Below are positions 1,432-49,049 of a stretch of 64,000 bases of DNA, piece after piece. Below the pieces are notes generated by a model. That model was not told where the DNA came from and did not search any database. It saw nothing but the letters and a program-made list of their open reading frames with translations. A program made the translations under genes and the position numbers. Every line of letters starts with the position of its first letter. The stretch's first letter is position 1. Location of the stretch: the NCBI GenBank assembly GCA_045594005.1, contig JAZNXT010000015.1, forward strand, positions 13,418 to 77,417, in the 5' to 3' direction. The stretch comes from Victivallales bacterium. Its GTDB lineage: Bacteria; Verrucomicrobiota; Lentisphaeria; Victivallales; UBA1829.

Positions 1432-4400
1432 ATGTCAAGCGAAAATGCGGGAGCCGCACCCGGAGAAAAAACGGTAAAATGCAAACATGATTTTGTACAT
1501 TTGCACCTTCATTCGGATTACAGTCTTCTGGATGGTGCGTGTGCGATCTCGTGGGCAAAATTGAAAGATGCCAGCGGGAAGACCGATATTGTGACCATGG
1601 CGCAGGAATACGGGATGCGGGCTGTGGCTCTTACCGACCACGGCGTGATGGGCGGCTGTCTGGAATTTCATAATGCCATGAAGGATAAAGGGATCAAACC
1701 CATCATCGGATGCGAAACTTATATCGCGCCCTGTCCCCGTACAGTCAAATCCATCGATGTTCCCAATGTCCGCGGGTTCCATTTGATCCTGCTGGCGGAA
1801 AATCAGAAGGGGTATCACAATCTGTGCAAACTCATCAGCGAAGCGCATACCAGCGGGTTCTACTACAAACCGCGTATCGATAAAGAGCTGCTGCGGGAAT
1901 ATCACGAAGGGATCATCGGGATGAGTGCGTGTATCCAGGGGGAGATCGCTCAGGCGGCTCTGTTGCGGGATTATGAGGGTGCGAAAGAAGCACTGACGGA
2001 ATATCTGGATATTTTCGGACGGAAGAATTTTTATCTGGAGATCATGAGTCACCGCACCAAAGATCCGGTTCCTGCAGATATCCGGGACGATTACAATGAA
2101 ATGATCGATCAGCAGGACAAGATCAACCGGATCCTGCTGAAACTCTCCAGAGATGTGGAAGTGCCGGTGGTGGCGACCAACGACTGTCATTATCTGCGCA
2201 AAGAACACGCAAAAGCCCATGAAGTCATGCTCTGTATCCAGACGCGCACCACCATGGAAATGAGCAAGCGCATGCGTCTTTCCAGTGAAGAATTTTATTT
2301 CAAGAGCGGCGATGAGATGTTCGAGATCTTCGGCAATGAAGCCCCGGAAGCCATCAGCAACACGCTGGAAGTGGCAGAACGGTGCAATGTGACGATCGGC
2401 TACGAAAACCATTATCCCGAATACGATCCGCCGGAAGAATTTGTTGCCCGTCTGGATCTGGATGCCATTAAAGCGGAATCCGAAAAAGAGATCGCCGCCG
2501 AGATCGAAAAGGACAGTCAGCCCGGCGATGACGGCAAACCCGGGAAAGTTTTTTCCGATGATGATAAAGCCGATTTGATCCGCCGGCGGATCGTGCTGAA
2601 AAAAGCCAGTGCCTATCTGCGGGAGATCTGTCTTTTCGGGACCGGAGAAAATTCCGTTTGCGGATACAAAAAGAAATACGGCTATGATCCCTTTGATCCG
2701 CCGGAAGATAAAAAAGCGGAAGCGGAAGAAAATCTCAAACGCATGGATTACGAACTTTCCGTGATCAACCGCACAAAATATCCCAGTTATTTTCTGTGTG
2801 TGTGGGACTTTATCAACTGGGCGAAAGAACACGATATCCCCGTGGGACCCGGGCGTGGATCCGGAGCCGGATCCATTGTGGCGTATCTTTCCGGGATCAC
2901 CAATATCGACCCCATGAAATATGACCTGCTCTTTGAGCGTTTTCTGAATCCTGACCGCGTATCTCCGCCGGACTTCGATACAGACTTCTGCGAACGCAAC
3001 CGCCAGCGTGTGATCGATTATGTGGTGGATAAATACGGTGCGGACAGTGTTTCACAGATCGGGACTTACGGCACGCTCAAGGCGAAAGTTGTCCTGAAAG
3101 ATATTGCCCGTGCGCTGGGCAGACAGCCTTCCGACGGGAACATGATCACCAAAGCTGTGCCGGACGATCCGAAGATGACGCTGAAAAAAGCAAAAGAGGA
3201 ATCTCCCGATTTCCGTCAGCTGCTGGAAAATGAACCCTGGGTGGAAAATATCTACAATTACGGTATGACGCTGGAACAGCTGAACCGTCAGATGGGGATC
3301 CATGCCTGCGGAGTGATCATCTGTAATCAGCCGTTGGCGGATCTTGTGCCGCTTGGACGGGGAGCCAACGATGAAGTCATTACGCAATATGTGGCTCCGC
3401 TGTGCGAAAGTGTGGGTTTGCTGAAGATGGACTTCCTGGGGTTGCGTACGCTCACGGTGATCCAGGATGCCTGCGACAATGTGTTCCGGAACCGGGGGAT
3501 CAAACTGGATATGGATCAGATCCCTCTTGACGATCAGGCGACATTTGATCTGCTCAACAACGGTGATACCGTGGCGGTGTTCCAGCTGGAATCCGGCGGT
3601 ATGCAGAATCTCTGCCGGAAATTCGGTGTGGAAAATCTGAAACACATCATTGCTCTTGTTGCGATCTACCGACCCGGTCCCATGCAGTTCATCGACCTTT
3701 TTGTGGGGCGTAAAAAAGGCACCATCCCCATTGAATACGATCACCCGAAAATGGAGGCACTGCTCAAAGAAACTTACGGGATCATGCTTTATCAGGAGCA
3801 GATCATGCAGGTGGTGCAGGTGCTGGCGGGCTTCTCGCTGGGTCAGGCGGATATTCTGCGCCGTGCCATCGGGAAAAAGAAGATCAAAGATATGCTCAAG
3901 CAGCATGATAAATTTGTGGAAGGCTGTGCAGCCACCAATAATATTCCTGCGGAACAGGCGGAAAAGATTTGGGAAAACATCAAAAAATTTGCCGATTACG
4001 GGTTCAACAAGAGCCACAGTGCGGCATACGCGATCATGTCTTACCGGACTGCTTATCTCAAAGCGAATTTCCGCCCGGAATTTATGGCGGCGGTGATGAC
4101 CAGCGAACTTTCCAACAGCGAAAAACTCACCTTCCTTATCAGCGAATGTCGTGATGCAGGGATCCGGCTGCTGCCGCCGGATGTGAGTTCCAGCAATGTC
4201 AACTTTACTGTGGACGGGGATGCGATCCGGTTCGGACTGGGTGCGATCAAGGGGTTCGGAGCGGGTGTTTCCCAAAGTATCATCGACGCACGGAAAGACG
4301 GTCCGTTCAAATCCATTACCGACCTTCTGGAGCGCACGGAAGGGATCAACTCCAAGGCATTGGAAAGTCTGATCCGTGCCGGAGCATTGGATTCATTGGG

Positions 4401-5286
4401 ATTGAAACGCTCCCAGCTTGTGGCGATGATCGACAGTGCCATTGCCAGTGCCAATGCGTCAAAACGCGATAAAGACAGCGGGCAGGGCAGTCTTTTTGAT
4501 TTCCTTTCCGAAGAAGATCAGAAGGGGATGACCGATGTGCCTGTGCCGGATATTCCGGAATTTGACGATCAGGAATTGCTGGACAATGAAAAAGCCCTGT
4601 TGGGATTCTATGTTTCCGGACATCCGCTGCAGCGGTATGATAAACTGTTGAAAACGTATTCTTCCGCCAAGATTTCGGACATTACGCAGATGCCGTCGGA
4701 TATCGGTGTGAAACTGGGAGGTATGATCACAGCATTTACGCGGAAACTCACCAAAAAAGATCAGAAACCTTTTGCGATCTTCCAGTTGGAGGATCTGACC
4801 GGGAATCTGGAATGTATCTGCTACAACAAAGTCTATGAAAAAGTCAGTACATATCTTGCGGAAGGCGCGAAAGTATTTGTCCGCGCTCTCACGAAGAAAG
4901 GGGAGGAGGAAAATTCCCCGTGTGCGCTGATGGTGGAGGATGTGATCCCGCTGGAAGAAGTGTACGGTTCCGATACGGAAGAACTGCATATCCATCTGGA
5001 CGCATCGAAGCATGACCGGAGTCATCTGGAGGCATTGCGGCAGTTGATCCGGAACAATACCGGGGATGTGCGGCTGATCCTGTGTGCGCATACAGCAAAA
5101 GGTGTTACTGCATTTATCGAACCTTCTGCGCGGTATGCGGTCAGAGTCAGCGCGGATCTGCTGCTTCAGCTGGAGGCATTGCTGGGAGAAAACTGCTGCA
5201 AACTCAAAGCGAAAAGCGATGTTCCCCAGCCGCGTCCGCAATACAACAGAGATTGGAAGAAAGAAAAAGAAGGAGAAAAACAATGA
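1432..5286 (+). CDS. dnaE: DNA polymerase III alpha subunit
   Basis: 1284-aa ORF with N-terminal PHP motif HLHLHSDYSLLDGA, catalytic region PDFDTDF and GPGRGSGAGS, and FLGLRTLTVI; SD GGAAGGA 7 nt upstream of ATG. Confidence 0.95.
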   Translation: MSSENAGAAPGEKTVKCKHDFVHLHLHSDYSLLDGACAISWAKLKDASGKTDIVTMAQEYGMRAVALTDHGVMGGCLEFHNAMKDKGIKPIIGCETYIAPCPRTVKSIDVPNVRGFHLILLAENQKGYHNLCKLISEAHTSGFYYKPRIDKELLREYHEGIIGMSACIQGEIAQAALLRDYEGAKEALTEYLDIFGRKNFYLEIMSHRTKDPVPADIRDDYNEMIDQQDKINRILLKLSRDVEVPVVATNDCHYLRKEHAKAHEVMLCIQTRTTMEMSKRMRLSSEEFYFKSGDEMFEIFGNEAPEAISNTLEVAERCNVTIGYENHYPEYDPPEEFVARLDLDAIKAESEKEIAAEIEKDSQPGDDGKPGKVFSDDDKADLIRRRIVLKKASAYLREICLFGTGENSVCGYKKKYGYDPFDPPEDKKAEAEENLKRMDYELSVINRTKYPSYFLCVWDFINWAKEHDIPVGPGRGSGAGSIVAYLSGITNIDPMKYDLLFERFLNPDRVSPPDFDTDFCERNRQRVIDYVVDKYGADSVSQIGTYGTLKAKVVLKDIARALGRQPSDGNMITKAVPDDPKMTLKKAKEESPDFRQLLENEPWVENIYNYGMTLEQLNRQMGIHACGVIICNQPLADLVPLGRGANDEVITQYVAPLCESVGLLKMDFLGLRTLTVIQDACDNVFRNRGIKLDMDQIPLDDQATFDLLNNGDTVAVFQLESGGMQNLCRKFGVENLKHIIALVAIYRPGPMQFIDLFVGRKKGTIPIEYDHPKMEALLKETYGIMLYQEQIMQVVQVLAGFSLGQADILRRAIGKKKIKDMLKQHDKFVEGCAATNNIPAEQAEKIWENIKKFADYGFNKSHSAAYAIMSYRTAYLKANFRPEFMAAVMTSELSNSEKLTFLISECRDAGIRLLPPDVSSSNVNFTVDGDAIRFGLGAIKGFGAGVSQSIIDARKDGPFKSITDLLERTEGINSKALESLIRAGALDSLGLKRSQLVAMIDSAIASANASKRDKDSGQGSLFDFLSEEDQKGMTDVPVPDIPEFDDQELLDNEKALLGFYVSGHPLQRYDKLLKTYSSAKISDITQMPSDIGVKLGGMITAFTRKLTKKDQKPFAIFQLEDLTGNLECICYNKVYEKVSTYLAEGAKVFVRALTKKGEEENSPCALMVEDVIPLEEVYGSDTEELHIHLDASKHDRSHLEALRQLIRNNTGDVRLILCAHTAKGVTAFIEPSARYAVRVSADLLLQLEALLGENCCKLKAKSDVPQPRPQYNRDWKKEKEGEKQ

Positions 5287-41004: not shown

Positions 41005-42477
41005 ATGTGGCAGAATTTTACATCCGATGTGCCGGAAACTACCGGTAAAGTCCGTTATGCAGAAGCATCCTGCAAAACGCTGGACAATGTTTCCATCTGT
41101 TCTGCACGGGACGATGCGGAACGGTTCCTGATCGTTTCCGGTAACAGCACAAGTGCTGTGTTTCAGGCATTTGAAGGCATCGTTTCCGGCAGCATCAAAA
41201 AAGCACCGTACACCCATGCCAATGCCGAAGCTCTCCGGAAATATTTTCCGTGGACAAAACCTGTACCTGTGCTGCGGAAACGCTGTTCTTTCGGTTGCGG
41301 AGACCGCCTCGGATGTGCCACCAGTGCCCATGCCGAACTGTTCAAAAAGTATGATGCCGCACCGGTATTCGCACAGCAGTCCGTGCGGGAACTGACGCTG
41401 ACACACCGTACCTTTGAAAGTGTGATCGATGATGCCACCTTCGAGGTCTTTCAGGCTGATTATCAGGGCGGTTTCGGCGCAGATGGCGATCACCTGAAAA
41501 GTTTTGAACATATCGGTGAAGCTGTCAAAGCCGGTGTGACCATGCTGACGCTGGATCTTTCCGAACAGCTCAAGCCCGAATTCGCCGGAGCCGATGAAGA
41601 AAGTATCCGCGCCGCATACGGAAAACTGGATGCGGATCTCCGCGCCCGGATGGAAAGTTCTTATACTTCCGTTCCCGCGCTGGGCTTGGAATTTTCCGAA
41701 CTGGAACGGATGCGCTGCGCACTCATTTATACGCAGGCAATGGATTTTTCTGCACAGGTCCACAAATTCCTTTGCGAAAATGGCGGAGCCGATACCGATT
41801 TGGAAATTTCCATCGACGAAACCACCGCACCCACCATTCCGGAACACCACTTCTTCGTGGCGTCCGAACTCAAATTCCGCAATGTTCCCTTCGTTTCTCT
41901 TGCACCCCGGTTCATCGGCGAGTTTCAGAAAGGGATCGATTATATCGGCGATCTGGCGGAATTTGAAAAACAGTTCGCCGTTCATGCGAAGATTGCGGCA
42001 TTTTTCGGCTTCTACAAACTTTCCATCCATTCCGGCAGCGATAAATTCAGCGCGTTTCCCATCATCGGAAAACTCACAGAAGGCAGAGTCCATGTGAAAA
42101 CCGCCGGAACCAGCTGGCTGGAAGCCGCACATACCATTGCGATCGCAGAACCGGAATTGTTCCGGGATATGGTCAAATATGCCTTCGTGGTCCTTGCCGA
42201 CGCACGCAAACTTTATCATGTCACTGCCGATTTTGATGCACTTCCTGATCCCGACAGTATCCCCGCTGATGAGCTGGTGAAACTGCTGGATGCAGACTGC
42301 ATCGCCGGCAGACAGCTGATCCATATCACTTACGGCGGTATGCTGGGCGGCAGTGATCCGGATCTTACGAAACGGATCCGTAAAGCATTGCTGGATCATG
42401 CAGAGGGATATGTGGCGTGTATCGACCGCCACTTCACCCGCCATCTGGAATGTCTCGGGATTTCAAAAAAAGCCTGA
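41005..42477 (+). CDS. uxaE: Tagaturonate/fructuronate epimerase UxaE family
   Basis: Matches my memory of Thermotoga UxaE: FGCGDRLG, PVFAQQSVREL, GFGADGDHLK, RFIGEFQKGIDYIGDL, SIHSGSDKFS, HVKTAGTSWLEA, RQLIHITYG. Confidence 0.75.
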   Translation: MWQNFTSDVPETTGKVRYAEASCKTLDNVSICSARDDAERFLIVSGNSTSAVFQAFEGIVSGSIKKAPYTHANAEALRKYFPWTKPVPVLRKRCSFGCGDRLGCATSAHAELFKKYDAAPVFAQQSVRELTLTHRTFESVIDDATFEVFQADYQGGFGADGDHLKSFEHIGEAVKAGVTMLTLDLSEQLKPEFAGADEESIRAAYGKLDADLRARMESSYTSVPALGLEFSELERMRCALIYTQAMDFSAQVHKFLCENGGADTDLEISIDETTAPTIPEHHFFVASELKFRNVPFVSLAPRFIGEFQKGIDYIGDLAEFEKQFAVHAKIAAFFGFYKLSIHSGSDKFSAFPIIGKLTEGRVHVKTAGTSWLEAAHTIAIAEPELFRDMVKYAFVVLADARKLYHVTADFDALPDPDSIPADELVKLLDADCIAGRQLIHITYGGMLGGSDPDLTKRIRKALLDHAEGYVACIDRHFTRHLECLGISKKA

Positions 42478-42501: not shown

Positions 42502-42531
42502 GCGCACCGGGGACCCCGGTGCGCTTTTTTG
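42502..42531 (+). terminator. Strong intrinsic terminator after uxaE
   Basis: GCGCACCGGGG (42502-42512) pairs with CCCCGGTGCGC (42514-42524), perfect complement, followed by T6. Confidence 0.85.
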
Positions 42532-42549
42532 TTTGTCATAAAACTGTGA

Positions 42550-42594
42550 TTGTCGCAGTTTTGTCGCACCGTTCATCTGCGTCATTTTGTCGCA
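42550..42594 (+). promoter_or_regulatory. Three direct copies of TTGTCGCA upstream of the clpB sigma54 promoter (candidate activator sites)
   Basis: TTGTCGCA at 42550-42557, 42561-42568 and 42587-42594. Degenerate TTTGTCA at 42532 and 42650. Partial inverted copy TGCGTCA at 42578. Confidence 0.4.
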
Positions 42595-42625
42595 TATTTC
42601 ATCTTCTTTCTGCAAAAATCTGTAT

Positions 42626-42641
42626 TGGCACGCCTTTTGCT
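42626..42641 (+). promoter_or_regulatory. sigma54 (-24/-12) promoter upstream of clpB
   Basis: TGGCACGCCTTTTGCT matches TGGCAC-N5-TTGC(A/T) exactly; GG (42627-28) and GC (42639-40) are separated by 10 nt; 48 nt upstream of the clpB ATG. Confidence 0.7.
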
Positions 42642-42688
42642 TTTATCTGTTTGTCAAAACAAACATCAACCAAAAGGAGATTTTGACT

Positions 42689-45310
42689 ATGGACATGCAG
42701 AAACTCACAGAAAAATCCCGCGCCGCCATGATGCGCGCACAGGAAATCGCATTGGAACACGGCAATCACGAGATCACCGGGGCTCATTTGCTTTATGCTT
42801 TGCTCACACAGGATGAAGGGTTGATCCCCTCTCTTTTCAAACACATGGGACTTTCTGCGGCAGATGCCGCCGTGAAAGCCGGACAGGAGATCGGCAAACT
42901 TTCCAGTGTTTCCGGACCGGGCGCACAGCAGCCCCACACCTCCCGGGAGTTCAGCGAAATTTTGATCGCGGCAAAGAACAATGCGGAATCCATGAAAGAT
43001 GAATATATCAGCGTGGAACATCTTTTCCGGGGGATCATGGAAAAATCGCCCGCCTGCCGGACTCTTCTTCAGCAGATGGGGGTGACGGAAGACACATTTC
43101 TCAAGGCATTGATGGCGGTACGCGGCAATCAGCGCGTTACCAGTGAAACGCCGGAAGCCGCCTTTGAAGCATTGGAAAAATACGGAAAAGATCTGACACG
43201 CCTTGCCGCCGATGATAAACTTGATCCCGTGATCGGCAGAGATGATGAGATCCGCCGTGCCATCCAGATCCTTGCCCGCCGTACCAAAAACAACCCTGTT
43301 CTCATCGGGGAACCGGGTGTGGGCAAGACTGCCATTGTGGAAGGACTGGCTGTGCGTATGGTCCGCGGAGATGTGCCGGAATCTCTGAAAAACAAACGGA
43401 TCATTGCGCTGGATATGGGCGCACTCATTGCCGGAGCAAAATACCGGGGCGAATTTGAAGAACGGTTGAAAGCTGTCCTGAAAGAAGTGGCATCTGCCAA
43501 CGGTGATATTATTCTGTTTATTGACGAACTGCATACCGTGGTGGGTGCCGGTGCCTCCGAAGGCAGTATGGATGCAGGAAATCTGCTGAAACCCATGCTG
43601 GCACGGGGCGAACTGCATTGCATCGGTGCGACCACGCTGGATGAATACCGTAAATATATCGAAAAGGATGCTGCGCTGGAACGCCGTTTTCAGGCGATCC
43701 TCGCGGCGGAACCGGATGTGGAGGATACCATTGCCATTTTGCGCGGACTCAAAGAACGCTATGAGATCCATCATGGCGTCAAGATCCGCGACGGTGCAGT
43801 GGTGGCGGCGGCGACTCTTTCCGATAAATATATTTCCGACCGTTTCCTGCCGGATAAAGCCATTGACCTGATGGATGGAGCCGCAGCAAAACTGCGCACG
43901 GAAATCGATTCCTGTCCTGTGGAGATCGACGAACTGGAACGCAAAGCCATGCGGTTGGAAATCGAACTTTCCGCCTTGAAAAAGGAAAAAGACGACGCTT
44001 CCAAAAAACGCCGTGCCGATCTGGAAAAAGAATTGGCTGATGTGAAAGAAAAAGTCCATTCCTTCCGCGCGGAATGGGATGCGGAAAAACGCGCCATTGA
44101 TGAATCCCGCACCTTGCGGGAAAGTCTGGAGATCGCCAAAGCAAAACTGGATAAAGCGGAACGGGAATCCGATCTTGAACGGGCGGGCGAACTGCGTTTT
44201 TCTGTGATCCCCGGTCTGGAAAAACAGATCGCTGATGCCAATAAACGCGCGTCGCAGGAACGGAATCTGCTCAAAGAGGAAGTCACCGAGGAAGATATTG
44301 CGGAGATCGTGAGCCGCTGGACTCATATTCCGGTGGCGAAACTGGTGCAGAGTGAACGGGAAAAACTCCTTCATTTGAGCGATGAACTCCATAAACGGGT
44401 GATCGGTCAGGATGAAGCCGTGGACGCAGTGGCAGATGCCGTCCTGCGCAGCAGAGCAGGCTTGAAAGATCCCAAACGCCCCGGTGCAAGTTTTATTTTT
44501 CTCGGACCTACCGGTGTGGGAAAAACGGAACTGGCACGCACACTTGCGGAAGAATTGTTCGACGACGAACGCGCCATGGTGCGGATCGATATGAGTGAAT
44601 ACATGGAAAAACACACTGTGTCCCGTCTCATCGGTGCCGCTCCCGGATATGTGGGATTCGATGAAGGCGGTCAGCTCACGGAAGCAGTCCGGCGCAAACC
44701 CTATTGCGTGCTGCTTTTTGATGAGATCGAAAAAGCACATCCCGATGTGTTCAATATCTTTCTGCAGATTTTGGATGACGGACAGCTCACAGATTCCCAC
44801 GGCAGAACGGTGAACTTCAAAAACACCATCATCATTATGACCAGCAACATCGGTAGTGATCTGCTGCTGGATGCTGCCAGCGGTTCAAAAGACGGCAGTT
44901 TCGATTCGGAAGCACTGCGTCCGGAGTTGATGAAACTCCTGCGCACACATTTCCGTCCGGAATTCCTGAACCGTGTGGACGCCACGCTCATTTTCAAACC
45001 GCTCACAAAAGATCAGATCCGCAGTATTCTGGATCTGCAGATCGCTCATGTGGCGGCACGGCTGGCTGATCAGGGGATCGCGCTGGAAGTGGACGAAGCC
45101 GCAAAAGATCTGATGGCAGCGGAAGGATACGATCCCGGATTCGGCGCACGGCCGATCAAACGCGTGGTGGTGAAAGAGATCGAAACGCCGGTTTCCCGTA
45201 TGATCATCAGCGGCATGGTAAAAGGCGGCATGGTGATCAAAGCGGGTGTGAATACGGAAGGCTCCGCCCTTGTCTTCACTCCTGTGGAAAAGAATGAAGA
45301 GCGCGTTTGA
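42689..45310 (+). CDS. clpB: ATP-dependent chaperone/disaggregase ClpB
   Basis: 873 aa with Clp N domain, two AAA+ modules ([16 protein letters not shown]) and a long coiled-coil middle domain. Start set at ATG 42689 behind AAGGAGA; upstream extension rejected. Confidence 0.95.
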
Positions 45311-45378
45311 TTTTCCCGTTTCAGCGTGTATATTATACGCTTGTGCGATTATTAACAGAAAAATGAAGGTGACTTATT

Positions 45379-46062
45379 ATGGACCGGGACGAAGATAAAA
45401 AGATCAACGAAGAAGCTGTTGCAGAAGAAAATACTGCTGCGGCAGAAGAAGAAACGGCGTCAACGCCGGAAACGGAAAATGCCGGGATCGCGGAGGAAAA
45501 AAAGAAAAACTCCTGGAAGATCTTCGGCGGTAAAGATAAAAAGGAAGAAAAGAAAGAACAGACTCCGGAAGAACGGATCAATGAATTGACCGGAAAACTG
45601 GCAGAAGCGGAAAAACTGCGTCTGCTCGCTTTGGCGGAAATGGACAATCAGCGCAAACGCGCGGCGAAAGAACGGGAAAATATGCGGTTGAATATTACAC
45701 AGGATACCGTGATGCCCTTTTTGCAGGTGTTCGACTTTTTCACCATGGCGGTCAAATCCGCACAGCAGAGTCAGAATCTGGATGCCCTGCTTCAGGGCAT
45801 GCAGATGATCCAGCAGCTTTTTGATAAAGCGTTGGATGAACTGGGTGTGGAAAAGATCGAAGCGGTCGGCAAAAAATTTGATCCTGCGCTTCACGACGCA
45901 AAAGAACAGCGTCCTTCCGATACCGTTCCCGAAGGGATCGTGATCGAACAGTGGAACACCGGCTTCAAATTCGGAGACCGTCTGATGAAACCGGCTATGG
46001 TGATCGTCAGCTCCGGCAAAGAAAAAACGGAACCGGCAGCGGAGCAGGAAACGGAAGGCTGA
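45379..46062 (+). CDS. grpE: Nucleotide exchange factor GrpE
   Basis: 227 aa with an acidic/Lys-rich N-terminal tail, then LLALAEMDNQRKRAAKERE...FLQVFDFF...GVEKIEAVGKKFDPALHDA. Confidence 0.85.
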   Translation: MDRDEDKKINEEAVAEENTAAAEEETASTPETENAGIAEEKKKNSWKIFGGKDKKEEKKEQTPEERINELTGKLAEAEKLRLLALAEMDNQRKRAAKERENMRLNITQDTVMPFLQVFDFFTMAVKSAQQSQNLDALLQGMQMIQQLFDKALDELGVEKIEAVGKKFDPALHDAKEQRPSDTVPEGIVIEQWNTGFKFGDRLMKPAMVIVSSGKEKTEPAAEQETEG

Positions 46063-47076: not shown

Positions 47077-47559
47077 ATGGCAAAAAAAGAACAACAGCAG
47101 AATGACGGCGGAAACGGCGTGATCGCGCAAAACCGTAAAGCACGGCATGATTACGAGATCCTGGAATCCATGGAAGCCGGGATCGAACTGCGCGGCACGG
47201 AAGCCAAAAGCTGCCGTCTTCATTCCGTACAGCTGCAGGACGCATTTGCACGGATCGAAAACGGCGAACTTTTTGCGTTCGGTATCCATATTTCCCCCTA
47301 CGCATTCGGGAACCGGTACAATCATGAACCGGCGCGGCGGCGGAAATTGCTGATGCACAAACGGGAGATCCTGCGTCTTTTTTCCCGCGTCCGGGAAAAA
47401 GGCTGTGCCCTGATCCCTTTGAAAATGTATATGAAAAACGGCAGAGTCAAGGTGGAACTGGGTGTGGCACGCGGCAAAACCTATGAAGATAAACGCGAAA
47501 CATTGAAAAAACGGCAGGATGATCTGGAAGCCCGCCGCAATCTGGGAGCAAAACGATGA
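47077..47559 (+). CDS. smpB: SsrA-binding protein
   Basis: 160 aa with IAQNRKARHDYEILESMEAGIELRGTE and a basic C-terminal tail. Confidence 0.9.
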   Translation: MAKKEQQQNDGGNGVIAQNRKARHDYEILESMEAGIELRGTEAKSCRLHSVQLQDAFARIENGELFAFGIHISPYAFGNRYNHEPARRRKLLMHKREILRLFSRVREKGCALIPLKMYMKNGRVKVELGVARGKTYEDKRETLKKRQDDLEARRNLGAKR

Positions 47560-49049
47560 TCTTTGAATCCGCTCTTTTTAAACGGTCCGTACGGGGCAAT
47601 ATCTGGGAAGTGATCGTAATGGCGTTCCCGCTGATCCTGGCATCTGCGGCACATTCCATCAACCTTTTTGTGGACAGACTTATGCTTCAGCATTTTTCTG
47701 AAGATGCCATGAGTGCCGCGTTTCCCGCCGGATTGACCAGTTTCGCACTCTCCTGTTATTTTGTGGGAACTGTGGGGTATGCCAACAGCTTTGTGGCTCA
47801 ATATTTCGGAGCAAAAATGTATCACCGCGTGGGTGCTGCAGTCTGGCAGGCGATCTATATGGCATTATTGGGCGGACTTTTTGCCATCGGGCTGACTTTC
47901 TTTGCCGAGGAGATTTTTGACTTTTTCGGTCACGAAGAACATCTGCGGGAAATGGAAGTGACCTATTTCCGTCTGCTGGGCTGGGGGACCGTGGCATATC
48001 TGCTGGTGATCGCCATGCTCTCCTTCTGGGGAGGTCAGGGAAAAACACACATGGTCATGTTTTTTGACCTGATCATCACTGCAGGAAATATTCCCCTCAA
48101 TGCCATGCTTATCTTCGGTTGGAAAACGCCGTTTTTTGAGATCCCCTCCATGGGTGTGGTCGGTGCCGCGCTGGGGACGGTCGGTGCATCGTTGATCGGG
48201 TTGATCGTGATGGCGTGTCTGTTCTTCCTGCCGAAAAAGAACCGGGCGCGGTACCGTACCGGAAATATGAAACCGGATAAAGAACTTTTCCGGCGTCTTT
48301 TCAAATTCGGCGGACCCAATGGCGTACAGCTGTTTCTTGACCTTGCCGCATTCAATGCGTTTGTGATCCTGCTGGGGAAGATCGGGACGACTGAAATGAA
48401 CTCCTCCGGCGTGGCTTTTTCCCTGAATTCGCTGGCGATGATCCCCATGTTCGGATTGGGTCAGACCGTATCCATTCTGGTGGGGCAGGGCGTAGGCGGC
48501 AACGATATCCCGTATGCAGAACGGGCGGTAAAAAGCGCGCGGTTCTGGCTGTATCTGATGATGGTTGTGATCGGGATCCTTTTTGTGGTGGTACCGAAAC
48601 CGGCATTGACTCTGTTCAATCTGATACCCGGTACGGAAGCATACGATATGGCGAAGATCATGCTATGGTTCATTACCGCGTATCTGCTTTTTGATGCAAC
48701 GAGTATTCTGTACGGCAGTGCTGTAAAAGGTGCGGGTGATACCAAATTTTCCATGTGGATCGGTTCCACTTTTGCGTGGGTGTTCTACGGTCTGCCCTGT
48801 CTGGCGGTCTATTATATCTTTACCAGACCTTCCGTGATCGAAAAGATGGGAAAAGACCGTGCCGACGCTTACAATCTCTGGATCCTCTGGACCATCTGTG
48901 TGGTTTATATTATGATCCTGGGTGTGACATTCTATCTGCGGTATCGCGGGGGGAAGTGGAAAAAGATGAAAGTCATCGAAAGCGAAGCCAACGATCATAC
49001 CCGTGGCGCGATCCCGAAAGAAGTGGGTGTGGACGCTTATCTTCCGTAA
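47556..49049 (+). CDS. MATE family efflux transporter
   Basis: 497-aa polytopic membrane protein (12 predicted hydrophobic segments by eye) with MATE-like N terminus IWEVIVMAFPLILASAAHSINLFVDRLML. ATG overlaps the smpB stop (ATGA). Confidence 0.75.
   Translation: MIFESALFKRSVRGNIWEVIVMAFPLILASAAHSINLFVDRLMLQHFSEDAMSAAFPAGLTSFALSCYFVGTVGYANSFVAQYFGAKMYHRVGAAVWQAIYMALLGGLFAIGLTFFAEEIFDFFGHEEHLREMEVTYFRLLGWGTVAYLLVIAMLSFWGGQGKTHMVMFFDLIITAGNIPLNAMLIFGWKTPFFEIPSMGVVGAALGTVGASLIGLIVMACLFFLPKKNRARYRTGNMKPDKELFRRLFKFGGPNGVQLFLDLAAFNAFVILLGKIGTTEMNSSGVAFSLNSLAMIPMFGLGQTVSILVGQGVGGNDIPYAERAVKSARFWLYLMMVVIGILFVVVPKPALTLFNLIPGTEAYDMAKIMLWFITAYLLFDATSILYGSAVKGAGDTKFSMWIGSTFAWVFYGLPCLAVYYIFTRPSVIEKMGKDRADAYNLWILWTICVVYIMILGVTFYLRYRGGKWKKMKVIESEANDHTRGAIPKEVGVDAYLP

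Follow-up and report, generated by a model that had tools for sequence, protein, structure and literature searches.

Which promoter drives the clpB-grpE-J chaperone operon on a 64-kb stretch of DNA from a Victivallales bacterium (contig JAZNXT010000015.1; the whole of this stretch is called the window here), and does the operon stand alone or belong to a larger regulon? The organism is an uncultured member of Lentisphaeria, a class of the phylum Lentisphaerota in the Planctomycetes-Verrucomicrobia-Chlamydiae (PVC) group. There are good grounds to regard positions 42550-42660 as probably a functional, activator-dependent sigma-54 promoter of the clpB-grpE-J operon of this Lentisphaeria bacterium. 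A first-pass annotation of the window had seen in the region a sigma-54 promoter of clpB-grpE-J preceded by a cluster of activator sites, and this core reading is supported by conservation in relatives, by the phased spacing of the elements and by the same composite standing at other chaperone genes. The features of the locus are collected in Table 1.

The -24/-12 element TGGCACGCCTTTTGCT scores 16/16 against the sigma-54 consensus and, taken with the base before it as TTGGCACGCCTTTTGCT (42625-42641), is a full match to the extended consensus YTGGCACG-N4-TTGCW, with GG and GC 10 nt apart. The window contains a single copy of the exact pattern TGGCAC-N5-TTGCW (0.06 expected from shuffles), and allowing one mismatch in the -24/-12 pattern gave no further credible site within the 64 kb. 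The start of transcription is predicted at ~42652, 37 nt before the clpB ATG, a geometry compatible with a sigma-54 promoter. Between 42478 and 42691, no controlling inverted repeat of chaperone expression (CIRCE), CtsR box or HspR-associated inverted repeat (HAIR) was found when up to three mismatches were allowed for CIRCE in the window and up to four in the intergenic region, and up to three for the CtsR box and HAIR; the best sigma-70 match there is 7/12 and the best sigma-32 match 9/13. The first-pass annotation had placed an exact sigma-54 match at 42626-42641, had noticed no other in the intergenic regions, and had seen no convincing sigma-70 promoter, sigma-32-type promoter or CIRCE. 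Its position and full consensus hold, the uniqueness extends across the whole window, and the low best scores together with the missing CIRCE bear out the last statement.

Upstream of the -24 element lies a 17-bp palindrome, TGCGTCATTTTGTCGCA, which at up to one mismatch is unique in the window (0.09 expected). Its centre is at about -66, counting the C of GC as -12, or about 41 bp upstream of GG. The annotation had listed this region as a cluster of repeats, with the octamer TTGTCGCA at 42550, 42561 and 42587, TTTGTCA at 42532 and 42650, and TGCGTCA, called a partial inverted copy, at 42578; all of these were found at those positions, and the palindrome is made up of the third octamer and TGCGTCA. 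By itself the number of octamers is not significant (6 copies in the window vs 3.2 expected), and three of the six lie inside 45 nt.

Conservation and reuse of the module

Ten further clpB loci (L081-L088, L145 and L146) were retrieved by ClpB similarity alone (69-81% identity), no DNA motif being used. Each locus has different neighbour genes upstream, and synteny therefore does not keep the intergenic DNA together. A GG-N10-GC element is nevertheless present 50-67 nt before the ATG in all ten, and eight of them (L081-L088) carry an exact TGGCAY-N5-(T/A)TGCT with an exact TGYGWCA-WWW-TGWCNCA further upstream, a palindrome pattern that occurs upstream of clpB and nowhere else in those loci. 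The remaining two are the most distant: L145 has TGGCAAACATCCTGCT with TGAGTCATTATGTCCCT, that is, a weaker TGGCAA-N5-CTGCT in which GG-N10-GC is kept and a degenerate palindrome, and L146 has TGGCACAGAAAATGCT, of the TGGCAY-N5-(T/A)TGCT type, and a single palindrome arm. A palindrome-type site is therefore found upstream in nine of the ten loci. In an alignment of the upstream regions (A1; mean column identity 49%), invariance is found essentially at the palindrome arms, TTGGCA and TTGCT, with the remaining sequence scrambled, and the palindrome is the only conserved upstream element besides the promoter. The annotation had named conservation upstream of clpB in relatives as a point on which its reading would turn; the -24/-12 element was kept in 10/10 of the loci looked at and the palindrome in 9/10.

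Because ClpB is so strongly conserved, a contig scan with it returned only relatives of at most 61% identity, spread over many phyla. These loci are unsuited to the comparison of orthologous promoters and were kept as a negative control. Among 80 such clpB loci (Firmicutes, Actinobacteria, Acidobacteria, Cyanobacteria, two Phycisphaerae, one Verrucomicrobia and others), no sigma-54-like site and no palindrome was present within 350 nt upstream of clpB. On this comparative evidence, the sigma-54 site is not a chance match, and the clpB promoter feature can be taken as real and very probably functional.

The same data bear on the possibility that the sigma-54 consensus is accidental or a relic, and that clpB is transcribed from a sigma-70- or sigma-32-type promoter with the palindrome as its operator. 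TTGGCA does match the -35 hexamer at 5/6 positions, and one exact sigma-54 match per 64 kb was seen in 6 of 100 shuffles. However, no usable -10 lies 16-18 nt after TTGGCA, in keeping with the poor best sigma-70 score; TTGCT is kept at the fixed 5-nt spacing in ClpB relatives of ~70% identity and before other chaperone genes, which a -35 element would not need; and the best sigma-32 match falls outside the invariant alignment columns. We consider this alternative very unlikely because the -12 TTGCT is conserved at fixed spacing and a -10 element is missing.

The repeats other than the palindrome are less widely shared. The octamer at 42561 aligns with TGACACA in three relatives (L081, L082 and L084), in which 25-26 or 37 nt separate this half-site from the right palindrome arm downstream of it, and the octamer at 42550 is shared with L084 only. 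Given that octamers 1 and 2 are shared by few relatives and the palindrome by most, the repeat cluster is best read, as far as the alignment tells, as a strong dyad site accompanied by weaker, accessory half-sites, an arrangement that is common for oligomerising AAA+ activators. The idea of an activator-site cluster thus stands in so far as the palindrome (octamer 3 with TGCGTCA) is conserved, but not in the form of three direct octamers as the unit, since the conserved unit is a single 17-bp palindrome. From its conservation we infer that this palindrome (42578-42594) is the upstream activator sequence of the promoter.

The composite was then searched for in metagenome contigs as the palindrome, a gap of 28-58 nt and TGGCAY-N5-TTGCT. 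It was met at 56 sites, 31 of which lie directly upstream of clpB, dnaK(-groESL) or hsp20. At 16 sites the first gene downstream encodes a ClpB-family protein (a 691-aa version with no N domain among them), at 10 DnaK and at 5 Hsp20, and at 25 it is another or an unassigned gene; chaperones thus make up 55% of the matches, though they are a tiny fraction of any genome. By source names, the contigs are Lentisphaeria/Victivallales, Kiritimatiellia-like and Prevotella-like: ClpB clusters among the matches carry the names Lentisphaeria and Victivallales, the Hsp20 of L097 carries the name Lentisphaeria, and L108 has a dnaK-groES-groEL operon whose DnaK shares 89% identity with a protein named Kiritimatiellia and whose dnaK promoter has a pair of direct TGTCACA half-sites ahead of the palindrome. 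Two dnaK loci fetched by protein identity alone (L147 and L148) both have the module ahead of dnaK, with degenerate palindromes. In L147, from an assembly whose DnaK is named Kiritimatiellia, cGTGACATTATGTCTCg is followed by a 16-mer identical to that of the window, ahead of dnaK-groES-groEL. The presence of the module at clpB, at a clpB paralogue without the N domain, at dnaK(-groES-groEL) and at hsp20 suggests that the clpB unit of the window belongs to a chaperone regulon, and an activator-dependent sigma-54 chaperone regulon is the best reading of these sites.

The distance between palindrome and promoter also follows a pattern. In the clpB relatives the palindrome centre was placed at -65, -65, -77, -66, -101, -67 and -88, in steps of about one helical turn. 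The metagenome scan was a less biased test, as every gap from 28 to 58 nt was allowed in it; the 33 distinct chaperone-linked sites have gaps of only 30-35, 39-42 or 50-54 nt; the Rayleigh p-values for this phasing, ~5e-5 for a 10-bp period and 3e-4 for a 10.5-bp period, are indicative only, because related sites are not independent. Such a dependence on the face of the helix is what would be expected for a DNA-bound activator that has to touch the polymerase 30-50 bp away.

Activator and trigger

Scans of the window and of all loci for GAFTGA revealed activator genes in two settings only, the Prevotella-like contig L110 and an unrelated transporter system (L092). The L110 candidate (L110:1042-2274, plus strand) is a highly conserved 410-aa protein with Sigma54_activat, AAA_lid_14 and a C-terminal HTH_8, and with neither a receiver nor an N-terminal sensory domain. 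It stands in the gene order pdxA-activator-lptE-TPR-secG and is ~88% identical to proteins named Prevotella. A search of the representative library with it found many full-length receiver-less homologues of 390-430 aa (39-54% identity), and none of ten homologues with source names is assigned to Lentisphaeria. No specific NCBIfam family fits the candidate, as all its matches are far below the cut-offs (258.7 bits vs 443.55 for TIGR02974, the PspF model). The Fis-type helix-turn-helix motifs of the L092 and L110 activators were compared, and the motif is generic. As the L110 candidate is without a sensory domain, it would need control in trans.

Several points weigh against the reading of the region as an activator-dependent sigma-54 promoter in such a regulon. 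No rpoN and no enhancer-binding protein gene was found in the window or in the examined Lentisphaeria/Kiritimatiellia loci by GAFTGA and RpoN-box scans. The sole candidate lies 4.7 kb from an hsp20 site on a Prevotella-like contig and is linked to it by proximity only. The palindrome centre, at ~-66, is nearer to the promoter than most characterised enhancer sites. The metagenome matches were selected for both motifs, and the independent evidence in them is confined to the identities of the downstream genes and the spacing; related sites among them are, moreover, not statistically independent. As for the sigma factor itself, RpoN was encoded in 2/2 of the Lentisphaerae genomes available in 2011 (PMC3372290, Table 1).

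Two of these points would also fit a different division of labour, in which the sigma-54 promoter is real, the palindrome binds another factor (a heat-shock repressor, an architectural protein or a co-regulator), and an AAA+ activator without a DNA-binding domain works from solution. Many activators of Chlamydiae, Epsilonproteobacteria and Bacteroidetes are without enhancer-binding domains (PMC3372290, section 6), no activator gene is tied to the palindrome in the Lentisphaeria loci scanned, and a palindrome rather near to the promoter suits a site that is not an enhancer. On the other hand, the palindrome-promoter distance is phased as a DNA-bound activator in contact with the polymerase would require, the palindrome has no conserved rival upstream of the promoter, the candidate near a target carries an HTH_8, and a repressor site at -66 would miss the polymerase footprint. 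Taken together, these observations make a separate palindrome-binding factor quite unlikely.

With a DNA-bound activator as the preferred reading, the following mechanism is proposed. Sigma-54 RNA polymerase would bind the -24/-12 element (42626-42641) as a closed complex. A dimeric or oligomeric AAA+ enhancer-binding activator would bind the palindrome TGCGTCATTTTGTCGCA, probably aided by the distal half-sites at 42550-42568, and from the correct face of the helix would open the promoter through ATP hydrolysis. Transcription of clpB-grpE-J, and perhaps of smpB-MATE, would then start near 42652. By analogy, the activator may resemble the receiver-less AAA+/HTH_8 protein of L110 and be restrained by chaperones in the way that PspA restrains PspF; titration of the activator by chaperones, as in PspA/PspF or DnaK/sigma-32, is a speculation that would supply the control in trans.

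Which signal acts on this promoter is a further matter. Judged solely by the gene set, it would be heat or protein misfolding. The module might instead define a sigma-54 regulon with another trigger, such as envelope stress, nutrient status, growth phase or a host signal, of which chaperones form only one part of the output. The 25 of 56 composite matches that precede non-chaperone genes speak for this; they include genes for OsmC, an S1-domain protein, a T2SS-C-like protein, a periplasmic binding protein and small uncharacterised proteins. However, the majority class is the canonical heat-shock set of clpB, dnaK-groESL, hsp20 and grpE-dnaJ, and some of the non-chaperone matches clearly belong to another system with its own divergent NtrC-type activator (L092), while others may be due to chance. 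We therefore hold another trigger to be unlikely.

A bolder proposal is that one receiver-less enhancer-binding protein reading TGTGACA-N3-TGTCACA is the heat-shock master regulator across Lentisphaerota, Kiritimatiellota and Bacteroidota, at the head of an ancient, sigma-54-based regulon whose activity is probably set by chaperone titration. We put this forward tentatively, as a possibility with somewhat more to be said against it than for it. If it is true, the clpB promoter of the window is among the clearest examples of such control, and the finding gains weight in that a single conserved activator would run the general heat-shock control of these phyla.

The transcription unit and other loci

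Table 1. Features of the clpB locus, in window coordinates
Feature	Position	Strand	Details
uxaE	41005-42477		Pfam UxaE
uxaE intrinsic terminator	42502..42531	+	stem 42502-42524, 10 pairs (9 G-C), 3-nt loop, then TTTTTTGTTT
Distal half-sites TTGTCGCA (42550, 42561)	42550..42568	+	direct repeat, 11-bp period
Proximal 17-bp palindrome TGCGTCATTTTGTCGCA	42578..42594	.	consensus TGYGWCA-WWW-TGWCNCA; dyad upstream of -24
Sigma-54 -24/-12 element TGGCACGCCTTTTGCT	42626..42641	+	GG 42627-42628, GC 42639-42640
TGTCAAAA box at predicted start	42652..42659	+	+1/+2 if C of GC = -12
Shine-Dalgarno AAGGAGA of clpB	42674..42680	+	read in sequence
clpB, 873 aa	42689..45310	+	Pfam Clp_N, AAA, AAA_lid_9, AAA_2, ClpB_D2-small
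grpE	45379..46062	+	Pfam GrpE, 9.6e-41
J-domain co-chaperone, CbpA-like, without zinc finger, 322 aa	46085..47053	+	Pfam DnaJ + DnaJ_C
smpB + MATE transporter	47077..49049	+	Pfam; closely spaced or overlapping, same strand

The ClpB of the window shares 99% identity with the metagenomic protein P0001, encoded on a 308-kb contig, and 71-81% with further proteins, several of them source-named 'Lentisphaeria bacterium'. The first-pass annotation had placed a strong terminator between uxaE and clpB and a Shine-Dalgarno sequence ahead of the clpB ATG at 42689; the paired stem and T run bear out the former, the coordinates of the latter are correct, and the terminator insulates the clpB unit from uxaE. 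The order clpB-grpE-dnaJ-smpB-MATE is kept in L081-L084, L087 and L146, and clpB-grpE-dnaJ-smpB(-MATE) in most of the ten protein-anchored loci; smpB and MATE may form the distal part of the clpB transcription unit. At the position of the J protein, most relatives have a full DnaJ of 387-404 aa with the CXXCXGXG domain, while the J protein of L081 is, as in the window, without this zinc finger.

No plus-strand terminator-like site was seen between clpB and grpE. This 68-nt spacer contains, at 45307-45380, the sigma-70-like pairs TTGATT-16-TATATT and TTAACA-17-TATTAT; such matches number 5 in the scanned region that includes the spacer, vs 3.6 expected, and one of them overlaps the grpE start codon. 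The pairs could represent an internal promoter for grpE-J or merely reflect an A+T-rich spacer.

A TGTCAAA(A) box at +1/+2, as in the window, is also found in L081-L084; in L146 it is shifted downstream by a few nt, and L085-L088 do not have it. The box resembles a half-site of the palindrome (TGTC...). Within it, GTCAAAA (42653-42659) is the reverse complement of TTTTGAC (42681-42687), which flanks the Shine-Dalgarno sequence. An RNA thermometer formed by this pair was considered and rejected on folding: for the 5' untranslated regions of the window and of L081-L084, z-scores ranged from -1.8 to +1.9, and no significant or shared structure was found.

A ClpB paralogue of 691 aa without Clp_N stands behind the same module in L114:23-2095 (minus strand) and L118, with partial copies in L090, L101, L107 and L113. 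It is 60% identical to the window ClpB over residues 160-852, and its promoter has a constant gap of 50 nt and additional half-sites. The gene would seem to be that of a second disaggregase under the control of the regulon. In L092:1354-2799 (minus strand), L133 and L141, the gene of a receiver-containing NtrC-type activator diverges from that of a PBP_like_2 periplasmic binding protein, and the sigma-54 promoter of the latter has a very similar palindrome, TGCGACATTTTGTCCCA, at a gap of 58. This appears to be a separate system with a look-alike enhancer.

Eight contigs of 37-43% GC (L091, L093, L096, L134, L109, L129, L130 and L143) have the composite, with a gap of 51-52, ahead of genes for proteins of 67-73 aa; the leaders of the two inspected, L093 and L130, have in common the recurring sequence GGGTAGTTCTTTCTCAGTCCT(T/C)CGGGACTTCATATAAA. 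In L108, both spacers of dnaK-groES-groEL (4250-4340 and 4650-4790) are built of short degenerate repeats, namely GTTAGGAG/GTTAGGGG facing CTCCAAC-type units, and TTCTAACA-type units. The repeats could fold into long imperfect hairpins, and may serve in mRNA processing or stability.

Relation to known heat-shock systems

Heat-shock genes are classically controlled by sigma-32, HrcA/CIRCE, CtsR or HspR/HAIR. The targets of the present module are the same, whereas none of the operators or promoters of these systems lies upstream of the window clpB. The mode of control would differ as well: the proposed mechanism is a positive, ATP-dependent activation, and the classical ones use an alternative sigma-70-family factor or a repressor. 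Strict ATP gating would give tight off/on control of the chaperone regulon, unlike sigma-factor competition or de-repression. Lentisphaerota, Kiritimatiellota and Bacteroidota are poorly served by the sigma-32, HrcA and CtsR paradigms, and our literature searches found no described heat-shock gene regulator for the PVC and Bacteroidota groups.

Individual heat-shock genes driven by sigma-54 and an enhancer-binding activator are known, namely lonD of Myxococcus xanthus with HsfA/HsfB, and ibpB and rpoH P6 of E. coli. Unlike the module described here, these are single genes in regulons otherwise under sigma-32 or other systems, and HsfA is a response regulator. To our knowledge, no enhancer sequence is common to HsfA-lonD, ibpB, rpoH P6 and the present module. 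The phage-shock system PspF/PspA of enterobacteria is a sigma-54 stress regulon; its activator has no regulatory domain at the N terminus and is under control in trans. The L110 candidate has the same AAA+/HTH architecture, but it is far below the PspF cut-offs, the targets of the module are cytosolic chaperones instead of psp, and no PspA-like partner was seen.

The closest precedent comes from a position-specific scoring matrix survey of 2025 (PMC12316311). For Bacteroidota and Planctomycetota, it reports an enrichment of GroEL/ES, IbpA, GrpE, DnaJ, DnaK, COG0542 Clp ATPases and Lon among the sigma-54 promoters that it predicts. It also states, with reference to Sabree et al. 2009 (its reference 80), that grpE and groES of Bacteroides thetaiotaomicron are transcribed in a sigma-54-dependent manner. 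The first-pass annotation had called a sigma-54 heat-shock operon unusual wiring; this is right when measured against the textbook models, but in view of these predictions it is not unprecedented (PMC12316311). Literature searches found no experimental study of such a sigma-54 chaperone regulon. The same gene set (DnaK, DnaJ, GrpE, GroES/EL, IbpA/Hsp20 and COG0542) stands behind -24/-12 elements in that survey and here, and the Prevotella-like contigs of our scan carry the same module. A term search of PMC12316311 gave no Lentisphaer*, and no mention of Kiritimatiellota was met there.

Since sigma-54 chaperone promoters have already been predicted (PMC12316311), the module is not a new kind of system. 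What is new, at the level of predicted sites, is the extension of this wiring to Lentisphaerota and Kiritimatiellota, together with the enhancer palindrome, the phased geometry and the sharing between PVC bacteria and Bacteroidota. The carriers of the module are related gut and sediment bacteria, and PVC and Bacteroidota include major gut and rumen bacteria; Victivallis, Lentisphaera, Prevotella and Bacteroides are cultivable relatives. The survey reports statistical enrichment only, and the passages considered name neither an activator sequence nor an activator, whereas a palindrome, a phased spacing and reuse across phyla are defined here. The result is a testable cis-regulatory code, a sigma-54 promoter plus a helically phased 17-bp palindrome common to clpB, dnaK-groESL and hsp20, by which the enrichment of 2025 becomes a set of defined sites open to mutation, footprinting and the search for an activator.

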